From: Marsupella aquatica
Lineage: Eukaryota > Plantae > Marchantiophyta
DNA length: 64,000 nt
Assembly (NCBI GenBank): GCA_973895155.1
Contig: OZ316899.1
Span: 10,753,135 to 10,817,134 of the forward strand
Reading direction: 5' to 3'
Each line of letters starts with the position of its first letter. Within the stretch, counting starts at the first letter, position 1. Positions 16,490-64,000 of the stretch are shown piece by piece. A program made the translations under genes and the position numbers. Below the pieces are notes generated by a model. That model saw only the letters and a list, made by a program, of their open reading frames with translations, did not search any database and was not told the origin of the DNA.

Positions 16490-17293
16490 TTTTTGGCGCT
16501 AGATGGAGGGGGCATTTCTTAAGCCGTGAGATATGAAGTTAGAACGGAAGCGTAGGTAATGACTGACTTTACGCCGAGGGAAGAAAGAGTGATTCAACGG
16601 GAGAGAGCTCGACTGCAGCAGCTCGCCGGGTGGCATGATACACAGCGACTGAGAGGGGCAGAAAGAGCTGGTAGCTCCAAAACTGGAAGTGGCGTTGAAG
16701 AAGACATACCAGAAGAAGAGTCGGTAAGGAGAAGTGAGTCTCCAACCGACATGGGGGAACCAGAGGCACGGCCAGACGAGAGGCCAGGGACCAGATTGAG
16801 CCAGCGGTCGCGCATACATTACAAGGCATTTCATGGGAGAGGAGATGAGGATCCGGACGAATGGTTGGATGATTTCGAGGGAACCGCTGCAGCAAATGGA
16901 GAATCGGCCATCAAGATGCAGATTCTTCCCGGCCTGTTCAAGGGTGAGGCTAGGCCTTGGTACAGAGCATTAGATGTGGAAGATCAAGCCATCTGGGATA
17001 TCTTCAAAACACTCTTTGTTAAGGAGTTTCGACCCATTGGAACTTCAGAACTAGCAGTGCTGAAGTTGGGACAACTTCGGTTCAAGGAGAACAAATCCTT
17101 CAGGAAGTTCTTGCAACGCTTTTAGAAACTGGTAAGACGTACAAAGACCAATGCATCTGAAGGTATGCAACTTCAATGGTTGGTGAATGCTTTGCCACAG
17201 AAGATGAGTTTTGCAATTAGGAAGGAGAACCCGGAGACTTTAGCCGAAGCAATTAAGGATATTCAATTATACATTAATGCAGATATCACAAGC
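16490..17293 (+). pseudogene. Second, truncated internal region (PBS + 5' gag) continuing after the 3' LTR
   Basis: Copy of 5640-6443 with CAG>TAG at 17123-17125. Identity ends abruptly at 17293. Confidence 0.92.
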
Positions 17294-39654: not shown

Positions 39655-40099
39655 CTTTGCTCAAGAAAATTAGTAACGCAAGCAAGTAGCAAGTGGACAG
39701 TTGCGTCACGATCTAGCTTATGCCTTTATTGAAAGGGAGATTTGATGAGTGCGCGATTGCTTTGTGAGGCGAATTGAGCTTGCCTTACTGCCTTAAGCTC
39801 CCAGATCTTCCTTGCCACGGTCTGTGAATGTCCGGAAGGCGGGATGGTCCTTGTCTTGTGAGCATGAGGGGTCTTAGGGAAGTGCCCTATTGATGATGGC
39901 CCTCGTTGCGGTATTATTCTGGGGGCTACTTAAAATTGCCTTCCACTTATGACTTAGTGAAGGCACGGCACCTGACGTTGTTGTGTACGCTGCGCCCGCT
40001 TGTTATGACTAGAGGTGGTACTTTAAGTACTATTTATGGCTATTCCAACTGTATTAGGGTAATGATGGTGCTTTACTAAAATGACAAAAAAAGATCAGG

Positions 40100-40740
40100 G
40101 TTTGCACAGGCCGCACAATGTGCTGATATGCCCTCCGCAAAACCTCAGGTGGCATCAAGTTGGTCCACCATAATCGTGGCCGATGTGCTGTCAATTCGAC
40201 ACTAGCAGCATCTAAAAAAACAGCAGGTCCTAACGAGGACCTCACTTGGTGCATACTAGCCACCATCTGTGACCTAGTATCACCCAATAAGGGAACATTC
40301 TCCAGAATGTAGGTGGGAGAGACATGCTGCTTCACCTGCAAAAACCTCATGACATGCAGCATCTTCCAAAACATGGGAGAATGATGGTCTTTGAGACCAG
40401 ATCTTGTCCCAATCCCGGTCCCAATAGAGGAATGGCCCTGGCATGACCAACCAGCAATCACAAGGTGAATCTCACCAATGCGTACTAAATCCGACACCCC
40501 CAAAAGTGAGATGTCTGCTAGCAAAGCGTGCTGATAACCTCTAATAGTTGATAGGGGCAACAAATCAGGGAATTGCTGATGCAACTGAGCAACATGACGC
40601 AGTGAGACACATCGGGCTGTGTCATCTCGCTCCACATAGAGATACTGATGCACTCTAATACCAACATGTAAGACAACAACTAAACCAGTGCTCATGCCAC
40701 CAAACAACTCCAACAAGCCAATACCCTTAGTAGGGTATGT
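40100..40740 (-). pseudogene. Truncated intronless C5-cytosine DNA methyltransferase, DNMT3-like
   Basis: Motif I LLELFGG, motif II YVE, motif IV LVIAGWSCQG (TCA is one transition from CCA/Pro), motif VI ILENV, motif VIII AHRPRLWWTNL. Motifs IX-X are absent. Confidence 0.85.
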
Positions 40741-41270
40741 CCAAAAATGGGAGTGGTGTCCAACGGGGACATAGTGATCAAACTAGGAATGTCATCCCCC
40801 ACCTGTGGCTCCTCTAAAGGGACAAATGGTGCACGCCAAGTTGCCTATACCTACAAATCAGCATGTTGCTGTAACTCAGGAGTGGAACCCCATACCTGTG
40901 GTACAACCATTAGTAGAAATCGGGGCATTTTAGACCAAACCTTATAGGACTAAGGCCACTAAGTCCTTTTTTGCAACTTTAAATGACTCAGAACCATTGC
41001 ACCGGTTCACATGAACACTACAAACGACTGTGAGTGCTTTTTGGTTTAGGATAAGACTAGGAAAAGTTTCCACCCTACTTTGTGACCTATTGTGCACACT
41101 CTAGCACATGATGGGTTGTCCTTGCATTGTGTTGCGGGCTTTAATTTGATAATGGGCATATGGGGGGGTTGCACTACTCATTTGGGACCTCTTTACCAAC
41201 ATCCCGCTATATTGAACACTTACACACTCAGTACATGATGAGATGCCCTAATGTCTCATATACTCCATAG

Positions 41271-41631: not shown

Positions 41632-44269
41632 TGTGATGCCTAGTCAGGAATCACTAGGCCAGTTTAAATGGTAAAACTCAGGAGTGTACCCTGGAAACAC
41701 ATTAGTGTAGTAACAAAAACAAGGAAAATATAAATAATTGAGGGTAACTATGGAACCCAAGCCAAGGCCGGAAGTAAGGACGTCGGGGGAGGGAACACGA
41801 TTAGGGTTAGGGCGCGCTAAGTACCGACGGCTATGGGTAACTAACGGGAAGGAAGACCAGGTAGGAGGGGGGTAAGGACCGATTGCAAGGAATGATGGCT
41901 CATTTGCAAGCACGAACTAAGCAGACGACTACGTGAAGCCAACTACTATCAGTTGCTTAGGCAAGCACTCAGGGCGGGAGAAAATACCGACTATCAATTC
42001 AAAGAAGGGTATGAGCAACGTCAATCAAGCTGCTCATTTTTGGGGATGCCTGTTAGAATGGGCAATTGAGTACATTGGGACCTACAAGGACGAAGAATCA
42101 GAAAGAGCAGCTCAAGAACGGCAGGACCTCGCTTGACTGTGGGAGTTGCAAAAGTCTGCCTTCTTAGGAGGAGAACTCATCACGGCTGAATTCCTGTGGA
42201 CACCTACTGGCGACAAGCTAGACGACCTTCTGTTTTGCGAGAATAGAATAGTCGGCATCCGGGAAGCCATCAACCATTGCAACGACGCACACTGGGAGTT
42301 GAAGGGTAGCACAGAGGGGTGGACGAAGGCAACCGTCCTCGGAGAAACATCCACGGCAGCAGCTATGAAGAGGAAAGGGAACAACAATGAAGAGACCACC
42401 CCTGCAAAGAGAATGAGGTTGGCGGCACCAAGGAAGCCAGCCGAGCAAGGGAGCAGGAGGCAGGAAGAAGCCAAAGAAGAGGAGGTCGACCCCATCAATG
42501 TCGTTCCAACAAGGGATGACACCTGGAAAGGCTGGGCGGCGACCCTCCCCGAGGAAGTGCAATTACACTTTGCACGTGAAGAGGATGCATGCTTTATGGC
42601 TATGCAGACTTGGAAGTACCAAGGCTTCATGGCCGGATCCGGCTTGGAAGCCTTTGTGAAATTACCATAGCTGAAGCCGGAGGTGCCGGATTCAGACTTA
42701 TTAGAATTTGTGGGATCTTGGGAGCCCGAGACCAATTCCACAAGGTTGTATGGGAAGGATTTCTATCTCACTCCCCAGGTGATTGCCAAAGTATTTGGCT
42801 TGCCGATGGGCAATAAGACCAAAGTAGATACCAGGAAGACCTTGCCAGACAAGGAGTTCCGGTCATTCCCAGGGCCATCAATGAAGAATGGCTTCTTTCG
42901 GAACTCCTGCACCAACCCGCACATAGGAGAGATAATCGATTTCTTGCGGGTTACCATGCATTGTAACTTGCCAAGGCCAGAGATCGGCAAGGCACAGGTC
43001 TACCTGGCGGAGAGACCAAACCCAAGTCGGGACTACAACGGGTACCTCCTCACCCAACTTAAGAAGATCTTGAAGGAGGAACAGCAGGTGATCGGCAAGG
43101 GAAGCATGTCCCGGCTTGGCTATCACATGCCGCTCTTGTGCCGGTATGCCCAAAGTCAGATCTTTGCCCTGGTACTTCCCCTACAGGCAAGGGCATCAGA
43201 GGAGGTTAAGGAACAGAGGCTGGCAGCAGAGAAGCCCAACCAGCCCGACAGTCCAACACTCCAACAATCGAGCAGGTGTTTAGGCCGAGGACGGAAGACT
43301 TGTCGATTCAGCAACCAGGCATGCAAAATTTGCTGAAATTGCTGAAGAAGGAAAAGAGGATGGCAACGCCAATGCCAACACCAATGGCACAGGTACAGGA
43401 CACTACCTCAGAGGTTGGTCTAAGCCGACTCATGAGGGAAAACCCCTTTACCAGAGCCAAGGAAAGAAGGAGGCCGGAACATGAGCCGGGGGTTCAAATG
43501 TATGTAGGAACCTTGAGTCCCAAAGTCAAGGGAAGACACCCTAAGGCTCTTGTTCACGGGAAACAGAGGGAGAAGACAGTCTGGAAGCCGGAGGAGGAAC
43601 TAGGACCTGGGAGCTATGATCGGCAAGAGGCCATGTTCACAGCAAGACCAGGAGAGCAGTGAGGGGAGTCAGTAATCCAAGTTGGGGAGGAGGTGGTGGA
43701 GGACTACAGCAATGATGACTCCGACTACGGGTCAGACCATCATGTCCCGAGAGTAAGGACCTGTGGCCGTTTCATCCCCACGCTTCCAAGAGTAGTTCGA
43801 GGGGACCCCACCCAGCAGAACAGCCCCGAGTCTCCCCCACCAGATGTCACTCCCCCAAGCTTTGACGGAATAAAACAGATGACACAGGAGTATCAGGAGT
43901 GACTCAGGGAAGAAGAGGAGGCAGCCCTGGCTAGGGAGAAGGATTTACTTGGGGGAGAATGGCCAGAGGACATCCGGCGGCTTGCAAAAAGACGGGGCAG
44001 CCCTCCAGCCACAAAAGAAGAAGTACGGAAGGCGGCTTGGGAACAAAGGCCGCGGTGGTTGATGCCGATGACTTCTACTCACTCCACCTATGCTAAAGAA
44101 AGAGCCATGGAGTACGGGGAGATGTGTGGGGAACTTGCGCTCAGCATCTTTGGGGAGGAGTTGGAGCAGGGACCCTTTTTCTAGAGGGAGATGTTGGAGA
44201 AACGCCAATTGGAAGAAGCGGTGGCTTTGGAGAGAAGAAAGAAGGACGAGGTCATCTGATAGCTTAGGG
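41632..44269 (+). mobile_element. 3'-truncated family A LTR with decayed ORF
   Basis: Starts TGTGATGCC; homology stops after ...KKDEVI at ~44269. Confidence 0.92.
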
Positions 44270-45884
44270 AGAAGGTCGCCGAGCCCTCACCAATCACCTC
44301 ACAGCACTCACGCTTAAGTGCCCTTGGTGCCCAAATGCCTCCACAGAATACCTCGAGCAAGCAACCTAGTGTCCCTTGCACCGCTAGCGGCCCCTCCCAT
44401 ACCAAGCCGCACTTACTCTCTAACACGACTGCTACTCAACGGTCCTCCCTATCTGCACAAGCAACCAAGCACCTCGGTAAGTAACCCTTCAGGATCTAGA
44501 ACTCGCCAAGTCTAGCATCCTAACTCAAGCTCAACAGACGTTGGTAAATAGGTCAGCGATAGGTCCTCCCGATGCCATAAGCCAGAACCAGAACCCACGC
44601 CCACTGTTCATCCAGAACAACTTCTTCCTTGGGCGCAGCCCGGGTTCCTCCTCGTACCTATCCATCACCAACTGACTACCCTGACCTCAGGACATGCTCA
44701 TGGCCCCATTAGCGTAGCTTGTCCTAAAGCTTGTCCCAAGCTTGTCCCAACACGCCAGGACCAGAATAGCCCCGACTCTAGCAACCGCTCCCGGTTTGCC
44801 CCACTGGGTGGTCTAGGGGCCGAGCACCCTTGGGACTCAGCCTCCGCACCTACTTGGCCTTGCCTCCCCAACGCAAGCTCCCTTGGGAGACTGAACGCGG
44901 CTTGGCTATTGTTCGGCAGGATTCGGCAAGCGGGCGAGCTAACACCCACAAACCACAAGAACTCACGGCACCCCCAGACCCAGTTGAGCTCAGGAGGACG
45001 TAGCCCTCCTCAAGAACTTTCAACGCACCCAAGAAGTCCTCCAACGGACTTCCCGTTGTGAAGATATCACCATTTCTGTTTGGCGGTTTCCCTTAGTGTC
45101 GCGACCGCCGCGGCTCACAACTTCGGCTCGGCCTTAGCCCCCAGGGAGACACCGCTCCCCTCATATATGCTTCTGGAGACCTGCCACCACCAGACCAGCT
45201 TTGGTCCCAAAACATTTGGCCCCCAACCCGGATCCCATCGCGCATAATGGGCGCGCCATGAACTGGCAACGCCCATAACTTTCTTGATAGGCATCCGCAA
45301 GCGGAGTGCCTTAGCCCGTTGTGACCGGGCCAACCCAGTGCTCATGCCTAGGCCGTCAGGTCTAATCGCCGCTTGGGGCCCCCGACCGGCCCAACCCGGA
45401 TCAGGCCACAACTTGCGCCCCAAGCGTCCATTGCCAATGGCGTCAACTCCATTGGCCTTGGGCCCAAGAGGAGCTCACTCCCAAGTCCTCAAAAATCAGA
45501 GTCCATCCGGAGGTCCGGACGGCCACCCTTGAGCCCGGCCCATTTCCCTTTGACCCGACCAGCCATCGGCTAGTCCAAGTCCTTAGTGTGTGCCCCCAGC
45601 TTGGCTCCTTGCCTCGCTAGTGCCACATCTCATTGCCCACAAGTCTCCCTATGCTAAGTCCTCCCCGGATGGCCTATCCGGGCCTGGACCATAAAGGAGC
45701 TCGACATTGGAGTCAGCAATGTAGGAGCTAAAGGTTAAGGTAGTCGAGTTCCGCGACTCTTACCTAGAACTAAGCATACCACGGTTAGACTCAAGACCAA
45801 CTGCCCAACCGCCTTACCTACCTAAGGGACTATATGTATCGGATGAGAATGAATGGAAGAACTGATTGTCAATGAGCTATAACA

Positions 45885-46750
45885 CGTTATCAGCACGAGG
45901 CTCCTTTTTTTGCTGCTGTCGACCGTTCACAAATTAAAATTTCTTTTCCAGAGGACCCTTTGGTGAAAGCTCTCGATACGGATTGCAGCGGCAACGAAAA
46001 CAATGCCGACCAATTGAGAATCAAGGACTCAACCTCATACACTAAAAATCAGACTCGCAAAAATCATAGTGGACAACCAAAAGCTTAGACAATTAATCAA
46101 TTGGATTACCCGGAGATCACACCAGAGCACATACATCGCGGTTATCAGACTCAAATCACAGAGTATTCACGATAAATTGAAATAGGATGTCTATACCCAC
46201 CAATTCTATCGAGAAACTACTATTCCAACCTCTCAGCATAGATGGCGCCAACTACTTATCCTGGACCTTGGACGTCGAGGCCCACCTCGCAGCTAAGGAA
46301 CTCTAGGACACGATCATCACAGATGCGGGAACTACACTACCGCAAAAGGCAAAAGCCTTGATATTAATTTGACACCATCTATGCGACCTTCTGAAGAAGC
46401 AATATATGAACGAATTTAATCCCTGGATACTCTGGGATGACCTCCAATCCCATTTTGATCACATTTGGACCATCTACTTGCCAGCAGCACGACACGACTG
46501 GATTAATTTGCGAGTCCAAGATTATAAGACGATCGTTGACTACAACAGCGAGCTATTCAAAATTGTAGCACAATTGGCAATTTGCGGACAGCCAGTAAAC
46601 AATGTCGAGCAAATCAAAAAGATGCTATCCACTTTGCATTCCGCCAACCTAATACTTTCAACGCAATACCGCAATATGGCCTTTACCAAATACTCCAAAC
46701 TAATTGCCCACATGCTCCTGGCGGAGAAGCATCAGCTCTTGTTACTACAG
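45885..46750 (+). mobile_element. Ty1/Copia (Bianca-type) remnant: PBS and decayed gag
   Basis: ...ATAACA|CGTTATCAGCACGAG matches the Bianca-type PBS pattern. Gag motifs DGANYLSWTLDVEAHL, QKAKALILI.HHL, ARHDWINLRVQDYK..DYNSELF, STLHSAN...QYR. Truncated at ~46750. Confidence 0.8.
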
Positions 46751-48827
46751 ATGTGGAATGGTAAAAAGTAACTATGGAGTGAAAGTGATCCATTTTAAAA
46801 CATTTTAACCTTACTTGAAGTTTATTTAGGTTTATCCGTCACCCCTTAATCCATTTTAAGCCTCAAAGGAATGTTATGGAAGAAAGCTAAGAAGTTTGAG
46901 TTAGGAAGGAGGAATCGCTTCGGACAAACAATCACTTTCGAAGAAGTCCAAAAGAAATTGCTTTGGGAGGAAGCAGAAGAATTGCTTTGCAGAAAGACCG
47001 GCTGAAGAATCGCTTTGGAAGTTGGAAAATCGGTTTAGACTTTCGGCAGCAACTTTGACGGACGATTGCGGATCGGTCCGATGTTGTTTTGAGGAGATTT
47101 TTGGTGCGTTGGAAAGCTCTTATCAAGGGCTATAAGGAGAATTTCAGTTTGGTCCCAAAAGACCAACTTCAGAATAACCCAAACCGATTCTCCAAGTTTT
47201 TTTGGCATATGTTACTTAAATCATTTTCTATCTCTTTTCTCACCTCTTGAGCCTTTCCATGAGTTAGATAGAGTAGGATATAGAGGGACATAGTTTAGTG
47301 TACCTTTAGGAATTAGATTTAGAGAGTCTTAGACTTATTTTACCTTTTAGGACCCTAAGTTTAGATGAGAAAAGGTTTTTAGGCTTCTAAACCTTTTGGC
47401 ATCTCAAACCTTTTGAGGGAGCCTTACAAGTGGACTCCCAAGACCATGATTCATTGTATTTTTTTCAACATTGATATTTGACCAAGTGTGGGTCTTTTTC
47501 TCGTGCCAAATTGGGCTTAGGAGAAAGAGTTTAATGGAGAAGACTTGTACCACTCACATCAATTGAATTTCAAACATTTCATGGATCAAACTTAAGTATT
47601 CAAGTTTTGATGTTTGAATTAGTTGTAGGTGTAGTTTGCTATGAAGAACCAAAAACACACTTAATGGTCTTCAAACTCGGTATTCGTTCCCGTAAAGAAC
47701 AAGATGGGGTTGGTTTGATAGATTTAAACAATAATAATAGACTGAAGATGTTTTCCACACATAGTAATCAAGTTTGATTACTTTACTAAGGTATTTTGAA
47801 GATCGCTCCACAGCGGTGAGAAGTTTTCAATGATAACTCAACATCATGTAAACATAAATTAATGAAAAGGGAACGATTAACAAAATCACAGGGAAAAATA
47901 TCTTAAAGTATGCTAAGGGAGTCTGGAATTGACCAAGGTTGCTCCTTAGACATAAGTCAAAATGAAAAGACTTAAGGATTCAAATCCACGTTTGCTTTTC
48001 AGATCTAAACTGCTTACTAGAGTACTCTTTTAAAGTGCCGTCAACACGTCTCTTTTTTTTCTAAGTGGTACTCAGACAAGATCTAAAAGAGTGACTACTT
48101 CAACATTTAGATGGTACTAAGCAACACGAAAGAAAATCCATCAAATTCATTAAAACATAAACTCAATGAGTTAACTCTAAGAACTCAGGAGATTGCAATG
48201 AATCACCAAAAAGGAATCTATCATCACAACTCAAAAGATTTGCATAAAAGGAATTTTACTTCCTGTGTTTATAATCATAGGTTAAAACACAAGGAGGTAA
48301 GTCTCTCCAAATGTTAAACCTGATCTCGAACTCATAGATTCATGATCAACTAGTTTAACACAAAGAAGAGGCAAAAATGCACAACTTTACCATAAACTAC
48401 ACTAGTGGTGGAGGGGTCTTGTAGTAAAAATCTACAGAGTGAGAGGTCATAAGGTCGAAGAGACATGCCTCTTTATACCTCTCAAAAAGCTAAAATGGCG
48501 ATTCAGTAAGTGAAAAGCCGGAAAAATGGCTAAGTCTGAACTCGTAAACTAGTAAACTCGTAAAAACGTAAAGTTGTAAAGACGTAAACTCGTAAAGTCA
48601 TGAACTCGTAACTCGTAATTGCGGTAAAGTAAAGACTTAGCAAACTCAACTATTTTTAACTTCCTAAATATGAGTAAGAAAACTCCGAGGTTTTGCCAGC
48701 AGGCTTTCCTAGGTACAGTCTATATACTAAAGAAGTATGATAGCTTCCAAAGCTCTAGAACACATTTATAAAAATCAGATGAGATGCACTACTCCTAAAA
48801 CTAACTAAAAACACTTAGAAAACTTCT

Positions 48828-51800
48828 TCAAGCTTGCTGTTGGATGTCCTCTGGTTCTAGTAACTCCACAAGGGTAACAGTCCGATTCCGTGTAACCTCC
48901 ATCAACTCAGTTTGGCGTGGGGATCCTCGGGAGTAAGGTAGGCATCTTAGTTGTCTCTCAGGATACATTAGAGGCATTCTCTTCATTAAATAACATGAAT
49001 CTATACGAAGAGCTTCTCTATACATCCCAATTACATCATAATTGTTGCAAGAAGCAGCATATACTAGGGGATAATGGTACAGGAACTCATCACTATTCAT
49101 CATCCTGGAATAGAAAGGTCAAAGCCTCCATCTGACATCTCTAAAGTACCGGTTGAAGTGGGTCAGGGTCTGAGTAGTGACATTGTTCCAGATTCTCTGT
49201 TTCTCAGCTAATGAACTGGTTGAAACAAGGGTAACTTTGGGTTCTTGAGGGATGTAATCATGTTGTAGAGCAGTAGACTTCTTGCTTTGCATCAGGAAAG
49301 AAACGACAAAATCCAGGGCATAGGCTGCAAAGTTTCCAAAGTATGCCAAAACTAAATCTGAATCCTCTACCTCTACATCACCTTGAAGTAGCATCATAGC
49401 AAGAATAGGCCGGAAGTAGACAGAGTCGGTCTAGAACTCATCAAATTGTGCCATCTCAACTCTGGAAGTCCCAAAACACCTCAGGTCAAAAATGTAGCTG
49501 GCCTCTGTTTTCTTGAGATAGTAGTATCTCCAAAACTCTCCAACCGGTGGTCTGTTGGCCTGCATAATCTTACAGGTCTCTACATACCTGCATACTTGGA
49601 ACTCTGGAGGTCTCGGGTATCTACTCTCGATGACAGCATTTCGGGGTGTGATGCCTAGCCAGGAATCATTAGGCTAGTTTAATTAGTAAAATCAGGAGTG
49701 TATCCTAGGAAACACCTTAGTCTAGTAACAAAAATAGGGAAATATAAACAATTAAGGGTGACTATGGAACCATGGCCGAGGCTGAAAGTAAGGATGCCGG
49801 GGGAGGAAACACGATTAGGGTTAGGGCGCGCTAAGTACCGGAGGCCACCAACAGGAAGGAAGAGCAGCCAGGGGGGGTAAGGACCGAGCACAAGGACTGG
49901 CGGCTCATTTGCAAACACAAGCCAAGCGGACGACTACGGGAGGCCAACTGCTGTCCGCTGCTCAGGCAAGCACTCGGAGTGGAAGCTGATACCGACGATC
50001 AACTCAAGAGGGGTATGAGCAACGTCAATCAAGCTACTCATTTTTGGGGATGCCTGTTAGAATGGGCAACTGAGTACATTGGGACCTACCAAGACGAAGA
50101 ATGGCTCGAGAACGGCAGGAGCTCACTCGGCTGTGGGAGCTGCAGAAGTCTGCTTTCTTAGGAGGAAAACTCATTACGGCTGAATTCTTGTGGACGCCTA
50201 CTGCTGACGAACTCGACGATCTTCCATTTTGTGAGAACAAGATAGTCGGCATCCGGGAGGCCATCAACCGCTGCAACGACATACACTAGGAGTTGAAGGG
50301 TAGCACGGAGGGGTGGACGAAGGCAACCGTGCTAGGAGAAACATCCACGGCAGCCGCTATGAAAAGAAAAGGGAACAACAACAAAGAAGCCACCCCTGCA
50401 AAAAGAATGAGGTCGGCGACACCCAGGAAACCAACAAAGTAGGGAAGCATGAGGCAGGCGGAAGCCAACGAAGAGGAGGTTGACCCCGTCAATGCCGTCC
50501 CAACAAGAGATGACACTTGGTAAGGCTGGGCGATGACCCTCCCCGAGGAGGTGCAATTACACTTTGCACGGGAAGAGGATGCATGCTTTACGGCTATGCA
50601 GACTCGGAAATACCAAGGCTTCATGGCCGGATCCGGCTTGGAAGCATTCGTAAAGTTACCATGGCTGAAGCCGGAGGTGCCGGATTCAGACTTACTGGAA
50701 TTTGTGGGATCATGGGAGCCCGAGACCAATTCCACAAGGGTGTATGGGAAGGATTTCTATCTCACTCCCCAGGTGATTGCTGAAGTGTTTGGCTTGCCGA
50801 TGGGCAATAAGACCAAAGTAGATACCAAGAAGACCTTGCCAGACAAGGAGTTCCGGTCATTTCCAGGGCCATCAACAAAGAATGGCTTCTTCCGAAACAC
50901 CTGCACCAACCCGCACATAGGAGAAATGATCGATTTCTTGCGGGTGATCATGCATTGTAACTTGCCGAGGGCAGAGATCGGCAAGCACAGGTCTATCTGG
51001 CTGAGAGGCCAGACCCGAGCCGAGACTACAACGGGTACCTCCTCACCCAACTAAAGAAGATCTTGAAGGAGGAACAGCTGGTGATTGGCATGGGAAGCGT
51101 GTCCCGGCTTGGTTATCACATGCCGCTGTTGTGCCGGTATGCCCAAAGCCAGATATTTGCCCCGGTACTGCCCCTACAAGCAAGAGCACCAGAGGAGGTT
51201 CCGGAACTGAGGCCGACAATAGAGAAACCGAACCAGCCCGACCGTCCTACAATCAAGCAGGTGTTTAGGCCGAGGAAGGAGGACTTGCCGATGCAACAAC
51301 CAGGCATGCAGAATCTGCTAAAATTGTTGGAGAAGGAAAGGAGGACGGCAATGGGGCCAGTACATAATACTGCTTCCAAAGTTGGCCTTAGCCAACTTAC
51401 TAGGGAAAACCCCTGTACAGGGGCCAAGGAGAGAAGGAGGCCGGAACACGAGCCGGGAGTCCAAATGTATGTAGGAGCTTCACGTCCCAAAGCCGAGGAG
51501 AATCAGCTCAAGGCCCCTGGTCACGACAAGGAGAAGATGAGATCAACGTGGAAGCCGGAGGACCCAGGACCCGTGATCTGTGGGGTTGTGTTCACGGCAG
51601 GATCAGGACAGTAGCGGGGGGAGCTGGTAGTCCAAGCCGAGGAGGAGGCGGTAGAGGGCTACGACAATGATGACTCCGGCTACGGGTCGGACCATCATGT
51701 TCCAAGAATAAGGACCCGTGGCAGGTTCATCCCCACTCTTCCAAGAGTAGTTTGAGGGGACCCGACCCAGCAGAGCAGCCCCGAGTCTCCCCCACCAGAT

Positions 51801-54800
51801 GTCGCTCCCCCGAGTTTTGACGGCATCAAACAGACGGCATAGGAGTTTTAGGAACGACGCAGTGAGGAAGAGGAGGCAGCCCTGGCAAGGGAGAAGGATT
51901 TACCAGGAGGAGAATGGCCGGAGGACATCCGGCGGCTTGCAGAAAAACGAAGCAGCCCGCCAACCATGATAGAAGAAATTTGCAAGGCTGTCTGGGAACA
52001 AAGGCCGTGATGGATGATGCCGATGACTTTTGCTCACTCCGCCTATGCTAAAGAAAGAGCCATGGAGTACGGGGAGATGTGTGGGGAACTTGCGCTTGCA
52101 TCTTTGGGGAGGAGTTGGAGCACGGACCTTTTTTGCAGAGGGAAATGTTGGAGAAGCACCGATTAGAAGAAGCGGTGGCTTTGGAAAGAAGTAAGAAGGA
52201 CGAGGTCATCCGTTGGCTTAGGGCAAGGGAAGCCGAGGTAGAAGACCTGAAGGCGTCCAAGAAAGCCCAAGATGAGCTGCGGATTAAGCGGCATGAGCTC
52301 AACATCATGCAAGGGCAATTGGATACCGCGCAGTCTGATAATCAGATTATCAGGGATAAACTGACTCGGACCCAATGTGATCTAGCCGATTCGATCAAGG
52401 AGAAGGAGAAGTGGAAGCAAAAGCTGAGAGACACAATGGAGGCCCACATAGCAGCCAACAATTGGGCCATGGCGGAAACTCAGAGAAGGGAAAGGGCGCC
52501 GAAGGGGGAACTCGAGGATATCCGCGGAGCCCTTGAGCAGAAGGAGGCCGAGTTAGGGAAATCCTATCAGGCGATTATCGTCCTGTGGCAGGAGCTCGCA
52601 TCCATGACGGCCAGCTTCAAGGCCAACCTCCGCGAGAAAGATGACCAGCTCGACCAGACTTATGCCAAGATGAATCAAATGGAGTCTGAGGTCATTGCGG
52701 AGCTTGACAAGGAGCTGAGAGTAGCCCAGGAGGAGAAGGCGACCTTAAAGAAGGAATTGGTGGAAGCCCAAAAGGAGCGGGAGGAAGCGCGCAAGGACCT
52801 GGATGAATTACAGGAGGAGTTGGAGGAAAGCACGCGGAAGATGGAGAACTTACAGTGGCGAGCCGACAACCAAACGGAGCGGCTGAAGAAACAGGCCGCA
52901 GTATTTAAGTGCTTGGCTTCCTCAGGACCAACTCCAATTGGGGCAACCAAGTTACCTAGTGTAGTACTGGCCGAAGGACAAGTCGAGACACTCGCACCGG
53001 TGCCGGAGGTAAGTGGCAAGGGGAAGGGGCCAGCTGCCGAACCAAAGAAGAAGAAGAAGCGGAAACCTTCTGGGTCAAGGAGTAATACGGCTCCTCAAGC
53101 CGGCGTGACCAAGGAGGTAAACCCAACACCAGGCAGGGTCACGGCAGAGGATCCACCTGCCCTAGAAGGCGGGATGATGAAGCCATGGCTAGGATACTCG
53201 GTGATGAAGTCGGGGTACCGGATCCATCACTAGAACATGTCGGGGAGGCCGTGGCCGATGCTGAGGCCGAAGCCGAGGGTGGACCCAGTCAGGCTGATGG
53301 AGAGTTGACTCGGTCAAGAGCAGGTAATCTGTCAGAGGACGGACCTACGGTAGTGGCTGCGGAGGAAGTGTTGGGGGCGTCGATTGAGGACCAGACACCG
53401 TTGCCATGACGGTGGTGGAGGGCCACTCCTTTTAAGGAGGGCGGACGTGGAGGGAGGAGGCGTGAGTGGGCAGGGCAGGCTCAAATCTTCAAGTTTAGAA
53501 TTAGGATCAGGACCAAGGGGCGGCCCTGACACTTAGCGTAGTGGGATTGCGGATCCACTGGTAAGAGCAACACTTCTGCTCCTGCCTCGCTATACATAGG
53601 TAGATTATAGTTAGGTAGATTAGGCTTACGCTGCAAGGAATTAGGCGGATCCACTACCAGGATAAGTACCTGGGCTGCGGGGAGTTGAGGGCCTTCTTCC
53701 TTAGCAAGTTTTTAGTGCACCAACAGGGCTGGGATCAAGTAGTTAAAGAAGCTCTCGGTTAGTTATACTGTGACCCTTGTGTATATTCATGTTTCCTCAT
53801 ACCTAAGAAATGAATAGAGTTGGCCTCACGGCTTAGTTCGCAGATCTTGTATATGAGAAGTACTGTTTGTATGGCAAGTGCATGGTATAACTCAGTCAGA
53901 AGGAGTCATTTTGCTATTTGTGTGTCGCATTAACTTGTTTGAAGATTGCCCACATCAACCAAGAAGGGAGTAAGCAAGGTAGTAAGAGTTGGATGTGTCG
54001 AGCTGAGATAGGTCTTAGCGGCTTACCCAAGCCAGTTGGGGATCATTTCGGCGGCAGAATCCAAACATACCTAAAGGAAAACCGAGAGAGGAGGACAAGG
54101 GAAGGCCAAGAATAGGCCGGCTACGTATCTCATGACCCGATGAAGGATCTGTCCAGTATATGTGAGTAAAATGTTAATAGCAATAGTAGTAGAAGGAAGT
54201 TAGCAGCGTCCCATGCCGCTAAAGCCGTGAAATTGGCCTCACCAAGAGCGAAACCTACGGGAATCGGCTTGTGAGAGGGGTTTCTTGGGTTTAGGGAGCC
54301 ATGGGACGCACCACACGGGGGGTCTGAGTAGATGAGGTGACGACTGCTACTAAGTTTGGATTGGATCTTAAGGCAGTGTCAACATCTTCAAACCCTTGGC
54401 TTGGTGACGGTGTTAAAGAGTTGTCATAAGATCGAATGGAATTAAAATCAGAGGGTGGGTCAGAATCTTCAGGTAGATCCTCTCAAAAATAAGGATGCTC
54501 ATACTATGACTGATTGTAGGGTGGTCCTTCTGTGGGTTTGTAGTTGGAATCAGGACTGTAAGGGTGGGAACTTGGACTAGGAGAAAGTGTAGCAGTAGGA
54601 CATCGCTGCACTAAGTTGCTGATTGCAGATGTTATCTGTCGAGGTTCACACTAAAGCATTTCTAGTAATTCATCCACAATAGCTGCACAACTGATACCCT
54701 CTGTCACTAGAATGGGGTCACTTAGTTTTAGGAGAGGGACCTGTTGGGTAGCAGGGGTGAGAGTCACAAATTCCGTTGGTGCTGATTCTCTTGGGGGAGA

Positions 54801-56243
54801 GGTCATCCTGATAGGGCTTAACTGGTCAGGGAATGGTGACTGGTCAAGTGCAAGCTAGAGGGGTACTGAAAGGATCTCCATTTTCTCCACCAAAAGGACA
54901 TAGGTCCTTGGTAAAAGCAATCACTAGAGGACAAAAAGATCAAAATGTTACATGGAATGGCCAGGATTGTTTTGGTGAGATTGAAAGGTAAGATCTTGCA
55001 TGCCAAATCTTTGGAAGTGTGTCCACATATTTCGGAATTTAAGAAGAGTGCCCAATCTTTTTGGAAGTGTGCACAATCTTTTTGGAAGTGTGCCCAACCT
55101 TTTTGGGAGTGTGCTCAGCTAAATCTTAATGACATTTATACTCCTTTCACTCTCCTTTTTGAGCTAGTCCTTGGGGACTCCTTTGGTACCCCTCTAGCTT
55201 GCTTTTGACCGACTTCAAACTGACAGCTTCCATTCTTAAATCATTAACAGCGTCATAGAGTCCATCACCACTGCAACTGAGAAGAGATGTCAACTTATCA
55301 ATGAGTTGCTGATTTGATTCTGCTTTTGAAGGAGTGGATGAGCTGGTCCTTAGGTTGACAGCAGCAAAAGCCAGTTCAACAACGTCTGCTAGTTGCTCAA
55401 AGAAATCCTTGTCTTCTTCAGCTCCAGGTTGATCTCCCGCATTGACTTCTCTTGAGTTATGAGCAGGCGAAGCTTCAAGACCACCCACTAATACATCTTC
55501 TATGTCCATATCATCATTCTGATCATGGGGATCCAGGGAAATGGCATCCACACCAATTTCTTCCTCAATGTCCAACTCAATCAAAAGTAACCCTCTTTCG
55601 GTTCTCTCCTCCGGATGTAGACAGTCATGAGCCTGGTAGAGTTGAGATAGATAAACTTGCAGATAAGTGGGACTGTTTGCCTTTACACTTCTCACCTGAT
55701 CCTTCATCACATTGAAAATTAACAAGACCCAGTTCACCTGGATGGCTCCACTGTGAGCAGCCACAATAGTGTTTACCAAAGCTATAGGACAGATGGTTGG
55801 CTTTTTCAGATGAAAAATGGGTAAAAATTCAGAAGAATTCTCAGATCCGGATAAGTACATTGTGTCAGATTCCAGCCATTAGTAATACTGTGAATCCCTA
55901 AGAAGTAAGGAGTTGACAAATCCTTCTTCTTTGAATACAATCCTTCTCCTTCTGAGGGGCAGCGGAAGGCCTGGGCAATTTGCTCCACAGTCCATAAGTT
56001 GGGTCGAGCTTGAATGGTCTGTCAAAATTCAGGAGCAAGCAGCGACCCTTTCACAAAATCCTATAAATACGTGTCGAGCTCTACATTCCAAGGAATTGCG
56101 AGTAGATGCTCAAGTCCCAGCTGCCGTAACGATGTTCTCAAATTTTCACAACTATCGGGCGCCAGAGGAATTCGAGCTACTACACTCTTAGGAATTGGCA
56201 AAGAATTGACACAGTACTGCTCATCAGTGCCGATGTCCGCCAT
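48828..56243 (-). pseudogene. Family D extra ORF downstream of integrase (plant-transposon-like domain + low-complexity region), split by the family A solo LTR
   Basis: LRQLGLEHLLAIPW...EQIAQAFRCP...NGWNLTQCTYPDLR..L.F...VNWVLLIF...YLSQLY. Coding-like sequence resumes at 49641-48828 beyond the insertion. Confidence 0.65.
49647..54315 (+). mobile_element. Solo LTR of family A with decayed ORF
   Basis: TGTGATGCC...GCACCACA with a perfect 5-bp TSD CGGGG (49642-49646 / 54316-54320). Confidence 0.96.
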
Positions 56244-56697
56244 AGCTCTAATCTATTCTGTCGAGTGCGCAAAGAAGTGGGGAGGCTGATAGAATCAATG
56301 GAGGAGGCAGGAATTTAGTCAAGAGTGAGCGCCCGAGTCTACATTGTCTTCTTTTCAAGTCGCGCTCTTCTTCTGTTGTGGAGTCCCGTTAAAACTAGCC
56401 GTAAAATGTCGCGGTCACTGGTCGCCAACTCGTAAGGCATAACTCTTAGTCCTAACTCGTAAACCCGTAAATCGTAAACTAGTAAACTAGTAAACTCGTA
56501 AATGGAGTCTACTTGTAAACCCGTAAATTGTCAACTCGTAAACTTGTAAACAGGAGTTTACTTGCAAACTTAAACTTGAGAACCCGTAACTTGTAGACAG
56601 AATGCTATCTCCGCTATGTTAGCAATAATTATAGTCTAAACACCATAAAAAAATTAAAAAAATTCAGTTTCTTCCTACTTTTGGAATTACCCACTAC

Positions 56698-59600
56698 TTA
56701 CATAGCCCCGTCCTCAAGCGGCGCCGTGCCCTCACAAGCCGTTTGACAAGGTAAATAATATTTCTTCACCCTGAAACCATTAATGCGTGTTGCCAGGGGT
56801 TCTCCATCCAAGGTTTCCAAAGATAAGGATCCATTTGGCCATGTAGTAACAACTTTGTAGGGGCTTATCCAATGAGTGTGAAGCTTCCCAGGGAAAAACA
56901 TATACCTAGAGTCATAAACAAGAGCCAAGTCTCCCGGTTGCAGTGTTGGTACTTTTAATTTCTTGTCATAGGCTATCTTCCGTTTGTCTTGTTGGTGAAT
57001 AGTATGTTGTAAGGCTAGAAGCCTATTTTCTTCCAATTCATCTAGAATTTCCAGCCTAGTGTGGAAACTATCAAGTTCAGGTAATCTCTCAGAGATCAGA
57101 AGCCGCTCAGTAGGTAATTCAAATTCAATGGGGGTAACACTATGCATACCAAAAGTTAAGTAGAATGGTGTTCTCAAGGTAGTAATCTTTTATGCGGTTC
57201 TGTAAGCCCACAAAGCAAAGTGGAGTTTGATATCCCAATTGGTCTTATGTGCTTCCACCATCTTATTTAATATTTTTCCCATTAATCCGTTAGCTCTTTT
57301 GGTCAGCCCATTAGCTCTTGGATTGTAAGGTGTGGTCTTTCGGTGTTTAATCAAATATTTGTCAGTAATAAGCTCAATGGTCTCATTAAGGAAGTGTAAA
57401 CCTTGATCACTTACCAATTCAAGGGGGCAACCATACCTGGTAATAATATTTTCAAATAAGAAACTGGTGGCTGTGGCAGCGTCATTCTTCCTAGTATGCT
57501 TAGCCTCCACCCATTTGGTGAGGTAATCCGTAGCAAGAATGATATCTTCTGCTTCGTTTAGCAACAGGGGAAATGGGACCAATAAAGTCTATTCCCCATT
57601 TTTCAAATGGAGATAGAGGTAAAATGGGAGTTAAAGGCCATTTTGATGTGGCCATAGGCTTCCCTATTCGTTGACAAGGGTCACAACTTTGAATGTAGTT
57701 ATAAGTGTCCTTGTGCATGGTAGGCCACCAAAATCCAGCATCCTTTATTTTCTTAACAGTTGTATTAACGGCATAGTGTCCACCAGAGGCTTCAGTGTGT
57801 AAGGCTGAAATTACCTTTGGAACTTCTTGAGCTTCCAAGCAACGGTGAAGTCTCTGGTTTGGCAATAATTTAAACAAAACACCCTTTACAATAGTATATG
57901 GTCCAACTTTGTACAGGAAAACAGCTTTTTCCTCCGCATTCAAGCCTGGTGGATAAATTCCATGAGTCAGCATCTGAACAATGTCAAAGTACCTTGAGTC
58001 TTCTCCTTCCAAATGCCATAGTTGCTCGTCCGGAAATTGATCAGACAAAGGTTCAACACTAGGATCTCCAGGAAGTCGTGATAGGAAGTCTGCATTCTCA
58101 TGGTGTTTCCCGGCTCAAACCTGCACCTCATAATCATATTCTTGTAAAAGAAGTACCCACCTAGCGATGCGCCCACTTAAATCTGCCTGATTCACCAGGT
58201 ATTTCAGAGAAGAATGATCCGTATGGAAAATGGTTTTATAACCCAAAAGATAGTGCCTGAACTTTTTACAAGAGAAAATGACCGCTAAGGCCTCCCTCTC
58301 TGTGACCGTATAATTCTTTTCAACACTATTCATTTGTCTGCTGGCGTAATATATTGGGTGATCTTTCTTTTCATCATCTAATTGACTCAAGGCAGCTCCA
58401 ACACAAAAAGCTGAGGCATCAATATAAACATGAAAAGGTTTCTGCCAATCTGGCGGTTGTAGAATGGGTGCAATAGTTAGTTTAGTTTTTAAAACTTCAA
58501 AAGCTTTTTGCTTGTCTTCAGTCCACACATATTCCACTTCCTTTTTGAGAAGCTGAGTCAAGGGCATGGCAAGGTCAGCATACTTCCGTATAAATTGTCT
58601 GTAATACCCCACATAGCCCAGGAAGCCTCGCAACTCTTTCAAATTTCCAAGGGGTTGTAATGCTAAAATAACTCAAACTTTCTCCACATCCACCTCGATT
58701 CCTCTTTGGGAGATAACATGTCCCAGTAGAATACCTTCCTTCATGCCAATGAAACATTTCTCAGGATGTAGACACAACTGTGACTCTCTGCAGCGCTGGA
58801 ATGTTTGTCTTAAATGATCCAAGTGTTGGTTGGCTGATCCATAAACGCAAAAATCATCTATAAAGATTTCCAGAAATTTTCTGAGAAAATCCTGGAAATG
58901 ATCATCATAATCCTTTGGAAAGTCCCAGGTGCATTACAGAGTCCAAAGGGCATAACACGGAAAGCGTAAGTTCCCCAGTCTGTGGTAAAAGTAGTTTTAT
59001 CTCTGTCCTCCTCTCGGATTGATACTTGGTTATAGCCAGAGTACCCATCTAGGAAACTATAAAGTTCATGGAGAGCAACCATATCCAACACAAGGTCTAT
59101 GAATGGCAAGGGATAATGGTCCTTCCTAGTAGCTGCATTCAGTTTCCTGAAATCTTGACATACTCAGATTTTTGGCTTCCCATCTGGTCGGGGTTTCTTT
59201 GGAACAATTACAATGGGTGAAACCCACTCACTGCTAAGTACCGGGTAAATAAAACCAGCATCGGTTAGCTTATCGAGTTCCTCTTTGACAAGCATGGAAT
59301 ATTTTGGGTTCAAATGATACTGTCTTTGTCTTACTGGAACTGCTCCTTCCATTAAATCAATTATGTGCTCTCCTAGGTGAGGTGGTATTCCTTTTAAATC
59401 CTTATGGCTCCAGGCGAACACATCCTTATACTGAGTCAGCAAATCAATATATTTCTCTCTCAACTCTCCTTCAATATGATTACTGATATTTAAGAATTTT
59501 CCTGGTTCTATCTCAATCTTCTGGCATTTTCGAAGGTCGACAATTCCATCGGTTTCGTTTGGTGAAATATCATCCCAGGAGGGCGTCTTGTTTATGTCCG

Positions 59601-62600
59601 CATTTCCCATCCTGGTCTCTTCCTCTGCCCTCTCCTCATGTCAGGAGACAGGTGTGAGGGTCCCTTCACTTGGTGTGTCACCCTCTACTTCCAGGATATC
59701 GAGATACCCGACTTCCAGGGGTTCAAACTTGGGGGCTTTGATAAGGAGAGTAGAATCCAAAAAATCAGAGGTGTACCCATCATCCGATTGGGTTTCGCCT
59801 AAATAAGGTTCATCTACCCAGCTGATAGTGACTCTTGGTTTCCCAAAGGACATCCGTCGTCGGTGCCAATCAACCTTGACTTTGGCCTTATATAACCAAG
59901 GTCTACCTAACAGCAGAGGATAGGAGGAGGGAACTTGAGGTCGGAGGACTACAAAATCTAAGGAGAAGGTCAGTCCCCCAATAACTGTGTCGAGACCAAT
60001 AAGTTTTCCTACGGGCACTACCCTAGATTGATCTGCCATCCGTAGTACTTGCAAGGTCTTCTCGAACTTATGGATTCCAATGTTGGATGCTGTTTCCTCG
60101 GTCATGATATTCACACTCGATCCACCATCCACTGGTACTTCGGGTATTACACACCCCATGATCTGAACTTCAATTTCTGGAGGTCCCTTATCCTCCCATT
60201 CTAATCTCAAGGCCTCTACAGAAGGTAGTTTCCTTCTTTTCCTCCTTCCTATCAACAATGTCCTTAACTGCTTTTTATAAGTTGGATTGTCTTCTAATAG
60301 TTCCCCGATTGTAATGTTGGCAGGTTGGTTTTTGACAATGTCCACGATATCATACCCCTTTGGCCTGAGTGGTGGTTCCATGGTTAGTTTGGGCTCGGGC
60401 CTCTTTATCTCTGAACGCATTTCCTTCCGTTCCCCTAGCAGGGGTGTATCCTCAGTTAACTCATGTATTTGAGTTTTAATCTCTTCAGATATATCAGGCT
60501 GAAAGTACTTGGGGTCATACCTTTCATACGCTGGGTCATCTTCTTTTGGGATTCCTTCCTCTGCTGGTATCCTTGTCTTATTCTTCTTTTTGGACGATTT
60601 CTTCTGCTTAGACCCGTCCTCAATATGTTTCTTCTCGTGATGAGACTTGGATCTGGTAGTGGCGTAAGTTTCCAGAACACGGTCCCGGTCCTGGACTCAT
60701 TGGTTGGGCATCCCCACAACATGATCTTGTACTAAGTGTTCCACTTCAATATCTGGAATGGTACCTGTTAGATTTTGTGTATAAATGTTGTGCACCTCCT
60801 CTTCTCTTTCTGCTTCAAAGGTCACATGACTACATTGTTCCATATTTTCTTGGTTGTAGACCATTCTGACCTCCTCAGGCCTGTTTGCTTCCTTCACAGG
60901 ATCCTTAGAAAATCTCACCATCATCTTTGGTTTTGGTGGGCTCGGGCACTCCAGAGGGAGGTGTCCTTCTTTTCCACAGTTGCCACAAATTGGAGTGTAT
61001 CCTACTTCTCTCGTTGGGTACGGACACTCTGGCGAATAATACCCTGGTTGACCACAATTGTAACAAGTCCCTTGTACCCTTGGTGCTCCTCTAGGCGGGT
61101 ATCCTCCTGGGGGTCCCATCGGTGGTCTTGGCCCCGGTCGATTAAATGAGGATGATCCTGCTATTTTCTGCTGGGTCCATGCAGCTGGTCTTGTAGCAGG
61201 AGGAAAATACTGTCCTGCAAACGGTGCTTGGACGGCATAGGTATCTCCATACTCGAACAACTCTTCCTCTTCTCCATAATTGACAGCTCGTTGCAATGTG
61301 GGGCACTCATGGTGGTAGTGTCCTTGATTATTGCAGCGTGTGCACCAAACATTATTTCGAATGGCAGGTGGCAATTTTCTAGTTGGTTTATAGATGGCCG
61401 CATTCACCGATAGTTTGTTTAACTTACTAGTCAAGGAATCCATCATTTTATCCAAGGTCTTGGCTTTTTGAGGTACTGTGTTTTTCTGCATCCTTTTTGT
61501 CTTGGTATCTACCTCATCAGAACTTGAGCTGCCGCTTGTACTACTGGTAGTGCTTGAGTCGGAACTTGTTCCCTCCGTACTGGTGGTGTCACCATCATCA
61601 GACTTTGAGCTTGATGAAGGCTTTGTCTTTTTCTTTTTCTATTTCTTTTTGCCCTTTTTCAAGTCCTTTTTAACTCGTTTCTTCTCAGAAACTTCTGAGT
61701 CCACGTATTTTTGAGCGGCTTCCTGTGCCTCTTCAAAAGTGGTACCTCCTTCCCTTCTTACATACCTCGCAATACGGGAGGGTAACCTGTTGATAAACCA
61801 ATCTTGTGTGGTAGATTTGGCTGTATTTGGATTATATTTTCCACCAGATCCAATAATTTATCTGCATACTTCCTGACCGATCCATGTTTCTTCATGGTGA
61901 GTTGAGAAATTTTGGCAAAGGCTCTCGCCTCAACACCATCCTCCCTATACTTGTCCAAAAAACCGGTCTTCGTTTTTCCCCAATCATTTTTGTTTGGGAA
62001 TCGATCATACCATTTTTGGGCAGTTTTCTTCAACAAGCCTCCGAAAATTGTGGCTTTCTCAACGTCTTGGGTTTGCCCATTTGAGGTGGCTTTTGCTTCA
62101 AATTCTTTTAGGAAGGTTTCAGCATCTTCCTTGGATGTTCCTTTAAAGGTATCATAGCGAATATTGTTTCGAGCCATTGGAGTTCTCCTTATAGGAACCG
62201 GGATTAAATTGGTTGAAGGAGTGGTCCCCAAAGATTGTGAACTAGTGCTGGTGACTGATCCTTGAGACGTCAATGGTGAAGTTGAATTTAAGGAATTGGG
62301 AGTGCTTATCGTGCTAAGGCTGCTGCTAGCACTTCCATAACCAAGCGAGGGAGGTATCTCTACTAATTTTGCAGATTCTCCAATGGGCGTTCTCTAAAGG
62401 GAAGGTGAGTCAAAATTAAATTTTAAAGATTTAATTTGCTGAATTCCTCCCCCAATTATACTTTCATGCCTTGTATTGGTAATCTTTTCTGTTCCTATTA
62501 TCTGCAACGCAGGTGTACCCTCATATGCATCCAAGCTTTGTGTTCTTCTTAGTGGTTTGACAAGGTCCACTCCTTTCTTTTTAGGCTTGGCAGGAACATA

Positions 62601-62844: not shown

Positions 62845-63283
62845 CCCATATTCTGAAAATCGGCACTCCTCAGGCCCAAGTTTATGGTGTCGGGTTGACC
62901 CTTAGTTCACCCAAATAGTTCCCATTGCTTGGAGAAGTCGCGCCCCCTTGTCGTCATGCCTCTGTCCTGTACACTTGTGGACGTCCGTGATTGAACAGGC
63001 GTAAGGATTGGTCGCATGTTGAAGCGACACAACCTATACTTGTAACTCTTCAACTTGTAAACTCGTGAAATCGTCAACTCGTCAACCCGTAAAGTTGTGA
63101 AATCGTCAACTCGTCAACCTGTAAAGTCGTAACGGCGTAACCGTAAAGTCGTAGCCCCGTAAAACCGTAGAGTTGCAAACCCGTAACATTTTACCCGTAA
63201 GGGCGTCTCCTCATATTACGGGGTGCCCCTTGGAAAGTGTCTCTCCCCTCATTGGTTTACAACCAACTTCGGCTTGTCCTTCC

Positions 63284-63941
63284 TTATCTAAGTCTCCTAT
63301 TTTGATTTTGCAATATTGCTCTAGCTAATTCTTGTATGGAGATAATGATATACTCCTCTCCAGTAATTCTACCATTCAACTTCAAAATAACCAAATGCAA
63401 AACTCCTCCTTCCCACCAGGTAATACTTAACCAATGAACACCCCTCCGTCCTCTTAGGGACAGTACCCATGTTTGAACATACCGATTATGCAAATTCCTT
63501 ACTCTCAAAGTGCCTAAGGATCTGATCAGAGGCATCTCAATTATTTTACCAAGTTGCTTATTCAAAGTTAGAATCAAAGTTTTAATTTGGGGAAATCCCC
63601 TCTTCTGTTGTCCTCTTCTATGCTGAGGTCCGGTAGTTATTCAACAAATTTTCTAGAGTGTCCAGGGCATCCATCCAAGGGTGTTCAACAATGTGTAATT
63701 TTTCCAACACCTCCTTGATTCTCAGTTCTTCTTCTCCAGTAACCCAGTTACTAATTTGACCATTCTTGCTTATTAAAAATTCTAAGTCATGTTCTTCCTT
63801 AATGGGCTGCAACTTATATTCCTCATCATCAATCCAAACTCTCTTAAAGACTATTACATCAGTCAATTTAGACCATTGAGGGAGGGTGGAGGTCCATTTG
63901 AAGGATGCTCTTTCTGTACTTGAATCCCTCCATTTTAACAA
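63284..63941 (-). other. Fragmented ORF of unknown function upstream of family D gag
   Basis: Two adjacent protein-like frames running toward gag; no motif recognised. Confidence 0.35.
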
Positions 63942-64000
63942 AGCCCATCCACTTCTGGCTTGCCATTTACAAGTGTCAACCAGCTCCCTTCTATTGGAGG

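Follow-up and report, generated by a model that had tools for sequence, protein, structure and literature searches.

The window, by which we mean the whole 64,000-nt stretch of Marsupella aquatica contig OZ316899.1 analysed here, is a nest of plant transposons. Our subject is one of these, a decayed Ty3/Gypsy retrotransposon on the minus strand that we call family D, and a long open reading frame (ORF) that follows its polyprotein gene and most likely lies inside its 3' long terminal repeat (LTR). A second Gypsy family in the same window, family A, served as an internal control. Comparisons with other copies use contigs of the public runs X1, X2, X3, and X5, which represent three studies and three organisms. 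The pieces of the ORF are described relative to P0004, an intact 808-aa protein found by a search with the C-terminal ORF piece. From upstream to downstream, the features of family D, including its polypurine tract (PPT) and a nested miniature inverted-repeat transposable element (MITE), are the following:

63287-63998, minus strand: decayed extra coding stretch upstream of gag; contigs cover bins 63374-64000 at about the gag-pol level
63044-63162, minus strand: array 1 of an 8-mer, upstream of gag
56698-62393, minus strand: decayed gag-pol with gag, zinc knuckle, protease, reverse transcriptase (RT), ribonuclease H (RNase H), and integrase
56703-56715, minus strand: PPT directly before TG, from the PPT scan and contigs
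47642-56702, minus strand: probable 3' LTR with TG...CA ends, delimited by its termini, the depth fall outside 47642, and a start position as in the family A LTR
56427-56600, minus strand: array 2, a TTTACGAG-type 8-mer, upstream of the LTR ORF
55824-56243, minus strand: LTR ORF piece 1, P0004 aa 1-140 (79%), first half of the domain in common with family A; 2 stops, frameshift near 55830
55211-55830, minus strand: LTR ORF piece 2, P0004 aa 139-364 (61%), remainder of the shared domain plus an acidic linker
54842-55210, no strand assigned: MITE of 369 bp with 25-bp terminal inverted repeats (GGTCAA-led), a 4-bp target duplication, and an internal 21-bp tandem repeat
54316-54841, minus strand: LTR ORF piece 3, P0004 about aa 364-540 (58%), Pro/Ser-rich linker; 3 stops
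49647-54315, plus strand: solo family A LTR nested in family D, containing a decayed ORF of its own and flanked on both sides by the 5-bp duplication CGGGG
48828-49646, minus strand: LTR ORF piece 4, P0004 aa 536-807 (76%), C-terminal domain that is conserved but belongs to no known family; 2 stops
47642-48827, minus strand: non-coding tail of 1186 bp (presumed promoter, R, and U5) with CA end
48539-48619, minus strand: array 3, a TTTACGAG-type 8-mer, preceding the presumed main promoter
48472-48477, minus strand: TATAAA, in this copy only

Family A establishes the design with which family D is compared. Two of its LTRs (1014-5639 and 11864-16489) are 4626 bp each, have 5 differences between them, and enclose a gag-pol, with a primer site after the LTR; each contains a 1217-codon open frame. 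Behind the second LTR come a further primer site and 800 bp of gag (16489-17293), and the element is therefore a shortened tandem array of LTR, internal region, LTR, and internal region. More family A LTRs lie at 26876-31573 and 49647-54315, and a partial one at 41632-44283. When the family A ORF is compared with three further LTRs of the family, third codon positions differ at 27% of sites and first and second positions at 13-15%; in the domain part, the values are 21-26% and 4-6%, a ratio of 4-5 times. Because third codon positions differ more than the first and second, the codon pattern indicates that this ORF was under past selection as a protein. A well-conserved ATG seems to lie near 1387, and the protein may be shorter than the 1217-codon frame. 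An ORF inside the LTR is thus proven for family A.

The gag-pol of family D has the order gag, protease, RT, RNase H, and integrase that is typical of Ty3/Gypsy, as judged by Pfam matches to minus-strand pieces, with the RT located by tblastn with family A pol (61%). It is broken by stops and frameshifts, and its pol is 52-61% identical to that of family A. No chromodomain was found: 56701-57189, at the family D integrase end, matched no Pfam family, and none appeared in family A pol. An additional archaeal-type RNase H, a trait of Tat, was not found either in the pieces between protease and RT, between RNase H and integrase, and at the integrase end (Pfam, E up to 0.01), a search whose sensitivity is lowered by the decay. 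Upstream of gag, the coding stretch at 63998-63287 has no family match and is likely a second, 5' extra ORF. Within the window, nothing upstream of gag is similar to the tail at 48800-47600, and the 5' LTR of family D therefore lies beyond 64000. The locus had no match among JGI metagenome or IMG/VR contigs.

At the boundary between pol and the probable LTR, on the minus strand, GAGGACGGGGCTA runs directly into TG at 56715-56701, and the integrase frame ends in LEDGAM with its stop at 56700-56698. The match between the two integrases ends at 56756 in family D and at 11808 in family A, leaving 54 nt to the TG at 56702 and 56 nt to the proven family A LTR start at 11864, and both junctions read GCTA followed by TG. 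The purine run is uninterrupted in 32 of the 32 contigs covering 56710 (four public runs), and every run has at least one contig that reaches 31-56 letters to either side of this position, so pol and TG are joined in other copies too. The sequence-only reading had reported a PPT-like sequence before the TG and an integrase end overlapping it. Both are present in this copy, but in many contigs the length differs by one base at 56748-56749, some 46 nt ahead of the TG, so an overlap between pol stop and LTR is not a constant feature of the copies and may be specific to this one. A scan for purine tracts before TG from 57000 to 47300, excluding the solo LTR, gave five matches, comprising the one at 56702, three in ORF or pol coding sequence, and one in the MITE. 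The tract at 56703-56715 is the sole match at a non-coding boundary, and family D has, like other Ty3/Gypsy elements, a PPT directly before a TG...CA repeat. The finding that the sequence-only reading had named as fatal to its own proposal, a short LTR beginning at a second PPT downstream of the ORF, did not materialize: the same scan gave no purine tract before TG between the ORF stop and 47642.

The ORF within this span extends from an ATG at 56243 to a TGA at 48828 and comprises about 790 codons once its insertions are removed. P0004 belongs to a cluster of five members, three of which have 808 aa (P0004, P0028, and P0029, all intact), on contigs of 3.4-3.9 kb. All four ORF pieces are collinear with it at 58-79% identity, despite 7 stops in the window copy, and the family D ORF is therefore one gene. 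One 2114-nt X1 contig spans 49279-49589 and 55550-56197 at insertion-free spacing, and a contig joint from 54837 to 55211 that omits 373 letters (X1, X2, and X3) shows that the MITE site is empty in other copies. One contig of X5 (organism C), a run in which family D is mostly under 90% alike, matches nothing but the MITE, from which it differs by 1 letter and 11 gap letters. Both end domains exceed the linkers in identity to P0004, which points to selection on the protein. The sequence-only reading had identified both the ORF (56243-48828) and the nested solo LTR correctly. Its span of ~4.3 kb needs revision: the 9061 bp from 56702 to 47642 shrink to 4387 bp when only the solo LTR is subtracted, and the overlooked MITE brings them to 4014 bp.

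The ORFs of families D and A are distantly related through a domain that the sequence-only reading had already described as shared. The pairwise comparison is weak (28% identity over 109 aa, E=0.009), and the relationship becomes convincing with a profile made from the family A domain and 18 of its 21 phmmer matches (P0009, P0022, and P0023 were removed as spurious), which scores P0004 aa 38-186 at 28 bits, compared with a maximum of 6 among 300 shuffles. The profile also finds a third family at 33554-33024 (104 bits). This match lies within a third decayed ORF (34380-31964, minus strand), which has a coiled-coil-like end and a second partial copy at 35973-35514, and possibly represents the LTR of a third family. 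Pfam gave no match for P0004 (E up to 5) or for any of the 21 alignment members (E up to 10); the models left unmatched include PF20167 (Transposase_32) and PF03078 (ATHILA ORF1). As a lead only, ESM Atlas returned PF20167 Transposase_32 with a score of 0.91 (159 shared features) and an ATHILA (PF03078) cluster with 0.90 (17% of members). An AlphaFold model of the family A domain reached a mean confidence (pLDDT) of 49.8 and had no Foldseek match, and the C-terminal domain in piece 4 had no Pfam family and no ESM Atlas hit scoring at least 0.9. As queries for further homologs, neither P0004 aa 8-215 nor alignment A2 brought anything new, the latter search covering only proteins of 1379-3935 aa. 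Named homologs of the domain are confined to the liverwort Calypogeia fissa, among them those at the loci of CAM6090539.1 and CAM6122807.1; two liverwort homologs are filed as unnamed proteins. The suggestion of the sequence-only reading that the architecture is lineage-wide is plausible: the design is proven in family A and probable in family D, and besides these two families the suggestion draws on another decayed ORF carrying the domain and on homologs in liverworts.

At the downstream end, the window reads TTCTTCA at 47642 and then passes into unrelated flank, and contig depth falls 7.1-, 7.9-, and 7.8-fold outside this position in X1, X2, and X3. The best-supported loose end in X1 and X2, at 47651, runs into a TGG-led, GGGG-containing sequence that is absent from the window, a continuation that would be the expected outcome of a 5' LTR joined to a primer site. 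Nine metagenome matches to the primer-site-like motif were rejected; they share only two 22-23-nt matches with the window, and two that were examined in detail look bacterial. Contig depth is no copy number and is used here, as medians, for a weak hint only, with the 3' part of the ORF 6.1, 12.4, and 6.2 times as deep as gag-pol (X1, X2, and X3).

Because of the position of the PPT, the TG...CA ends, the sharp repeat end at 47642, and the absence of a PPT further downstream, we consider 56702-47642 (minus strand) to be most likely the 3' LTR of a decayed non-chromovirus Gypsy element, about 4.0 kb long plus two later insertions, with a broken ORF inside. Several elements of this reading are shown directly: gag-pol and the purine tract, the termini of the span, the two insertions, an ORF that is a single gene, and the distant relationship of that ORF to the one in the family A LTR. 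Several points weigh against it. The 5' LTR, a solo LTR of family D, and a target-site duplication of the element were not seen, and a contig with foreign flank at 56702 was absent among the 24 loose ends listed (1287 more exist). The primer-site-like sequence is represented by 2 contigs per run with 75-83% agreement and matched no tRNA. The 5' part of the ORF is only 2.0, 3.1, 1.2, and 0.23 times as deep as gag-pol (X1, X2, X3, and X5), so that X5, where most contigs are under 90% alike, has no LTR depth excess. It is also 3-5 times shallower than the 3' part of the ORF, a gap for which faster divergence of the 5' half of the LTR among subfamilies is one possible source.

If the LTR reading is correct, plus-strand synthesis primed at the tract at 56703 would copy everything downstream, the ORF included, into both LTRs, and recombination would leave solo LTRs that still have leader, ORF, and tail. 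The ORF would be expressed from its own promoter in the 459-nt leader, which contains array 2, and would use the 3' end signals of the LTR, and the genomic RNA would start further down, after array 3, placing the ORF in U3. Given an LTR, we find this U3 placement fairly likely. The sequence-only reading had derived it from the position of the TATAAA at 48477-48472, which is present but private to this copy: its fourth base, at 48474, is another letter in 74 of 74 covering contigs (24, 9, and 41 in X1, X2, and X3). The argument from the TATA box fails as it was made, and the lack of conservation weighs against U3. The LTR of family A has, some 95 nt after its start and upstream of the ORF, a TATAAA that is kept in four of four aligned copies, which supports an ORF promoter at the LTR start; the TATA-like site in the tail, at 5438, is not kept. 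At 1108-1200 and the equivalent sites in three other family A LTRs, the conserved TATAAA is followed by a TTAGGGTTAGGG motif, which we take to be telo-box-like.

The conserved upstream box of family A and the unconserved tail boxes of both families would suit a variant in which the ORF is in the LTR but belongs to R or U5, with a single promoter near the LTR start and the ORF as the first cistron of the genomic RNA. This variant shares the probability given to the LTR reading as a whole, and we regard it as rather doubtful. It requires an R plus U5 of about 3.6-4.5 kb with matching strong-stop DNA, a length that would be unusual. An internal promoter of the ORF would account for the upstream TATA just as well, and array 3 and a pyrimidine-rich stretch in the tail resemble a second promoter region.

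A layout like that of Athila or Retand, in which the ORF would be a sense extra ORF belonging to the internal region and the LTR proper would comprise just the final 0.9-1.2 kb (from about 48800 or 48500 to 47642), is improbable. The internal region is where extra ORFs of plant Gypsy and other LTR elements are usually described in the accessible text of PMC7264820 and PMC6317226, and arrays beside pol and beside the LTR, as seen here, are typical of the internal 3' region of Retand according to the available part of PMC11963269, a further point against an ORF within the LTR. Non-autonomous copies could lift ORF depth above that of pol, and the tail is 2.2 times deeper than the 3' part of the ORF in X1, which would fit a short LTR and likewise counts against the long one. 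There is, however, no such step at the ORF stop in the other two runs (0.93 in X2 and 0.87 in X3), no purine tract precedes any TG between 48828 and 47642, the conserved tract and TG at 56702 match the family A LTR start exactly, and the homologous ORF of family A sits inside the LTR. Still less probable is an origin of the 4-kb unit from another element, whose LTR or body would have inserted or recombined at the D pol end in this copy only: the far greater depth of the ORF 3' part and tail than of gag-pol would imply many copies without the D internal region, but contigs of other copies cross the junction of pol and TG in four of four runs, the 8-mer array is also found upstream of D gag, and the junction mirrors that of family A.

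The arrays suggest what the protein encoded in the family D LTR might do. With one mismatch allowed, the 8-mer has 22 matches in the window, compared with 2.8 expected, and 21 of them lie in the three family D arrays; the array at 56427-56600 is the one that the sequence-only reading had pointed out. A second motif behind arrays 1 and 2, alike by eye, was dropped, as its score was reached in 23 of 500 shuffles. VANC proteins bind short motifs arrayed in the non-coding regions of their own transposons and remove methylation, as described in the available part of PMC5735166. By analogy, the role that we tentatively favour for the LTR protein is that of a nuclear regulator which, like the anti-silencing VANC proteins, would work in trans on the family that encodes it, and the three 8-mer arrays would be candidate sites for its binding. 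Against this functional proposal stand the lack of any Pfam or Foldseek match, the absence of such an 8-mer array from family A, and the frequent presence of arrays in the internal regions of Retand, for which the accessible text of PMC11963269 gives no known function. A wider scenario, which we think unlikely, is that a Gypsy lineage of liverworts or related non-seed plants moved an accessory gene into LTRs of 4-4.7 kb with an LTR-internal promoter, that solo LTRs are free-standing cassettes, and that the predicted trans action on family-specific 8-mer arrays would keep the family expressed, as an LTR-borne counterpart of VANC.

Plant LTRs are usually treated as non-coding and the formation of solo LTRs as the disarming of an element by its host. 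Should two diverged families indeed maintain a selected gene, some 800-1100 codons in length, within the LTR, then solo LTRs would still be able to code for protein, the existence of very long LTRs would be accounted for, and LTR ORFs would be taken for host genes by annotation pipelines. The candidate target motifs of family D make the function of a plant retrotransposon accessory ORF directly testable.

Other parts of the window hold further sequences. Host-gene exons at 1-490, about 500 bp from the young family A insertion, presumably belong to a metallo-beta-lactamase-fold DNA cross-link repair nuclease. A 242-aa open frame at 40057-40782 (minus strand), among transposon remnants, has a weak match to C-5 cytosine DNA methylase (E=0.001, below the cut-off). 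There is a Copia-type gag fragment at 45960-46771 with a primer-site-like motif upstream, a Transposase_24 fragment at 24885-25310, and near-perfect tandem arrays at 36212-36405 (15 bp, 13 copies) and 37875-38230 (177 bp, 2 copies).

Among known systems, family A is the most similar to family D. Both have a PPT ending in GCTA before the TG at the integrase end, an LTR of over 4 kb, a sense LTR ORF with the shared domain, and a non-coding tail of about 1 kb, yet their pol sequences are only 52-61% identical and their LTRs have no DNA similarity. The family A ORF has a long coiled coil, whereas the family D ORF has the domain at its N-terminus and a different conserved domain at its C-terminus, and family D has 8-mer arrays and a 5' extra ORF, neither of which occurs in family A.

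The OTA non-chromoviruses (Athila, Ogre, and Retand), as characterized in the available parts of PMC6317226, PMC7264820, and PMC11963269, resemble family D in the lack of a chromodomain, in extra ORFs and tandem arrays, and in LTRs of up to about 5 kb. The extra ORFs described there belong to the internal region and either precede gag or lie between pol and the 3' LTR, whereas that of family D is downstream of the PPT, and no extra RNase H was found in family D. An Athila element would have its sense extra ORF between pol and PPT, but the only PPT found in family D is upstream of the ORF. Phygy and Selgy, from moss and clubmoss, are like family D non-chromovirus Gypsy elements of non-seed plants; in the accessible text of PMC6317226 they are short, with a polyprotein that fills the internal part and, for Phygy, an NCGN target preference, whereas family D has a probable 4-kb LTR along with a likely 5' extra ORF, and family A makes 5-bp duplications. 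Athila, Phygy, Selgy, and Tat lineages of a liverwort are reported in PMC12885004, whose available part does not mention an LTR-internal ORF. Upstream of gag, family D has an array and no less than 0.7 kb of additional coding sequence, and is thus neither short nor filled by its polyprotein in the way of Phygy.

We found no plant LTR-internal ORF in the literature searched, whose coverage excludes most subscription journals; the known precedent is the sag gene of the mouse mammary tumour virus (MMTV). MMTV is a retrovirus, its sag product is an unrelated membrane protein, and its LTR and ORF are much shorter than those of family D. The sag gene, the ORF in the 3' LTR, is wholly inside the LTR and hence duplicated at both ends (PMC2119085, in the part available), as proposed for family D. 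The VANC system of VANDAL resembles family D in pairing an accessory protein with short motifs arrayed in several non-coding regions, as far as the accessible text of PMC5735166 and bioRxiv 10.1101/2024.04.02.587720 describes it; the main domain of VANC is reported in the latter to be similar to MAIL1. VANDAL differs in being a DNA transposon, and the comparison is a working analogy, with no sequence or structural link to DUF1985 or PMD demonstrated here. Set beside these systems, family D probably has a Gypsy accessory ORF in a place undescribed for plants and extends the design proven for family A to a second, diverged family.

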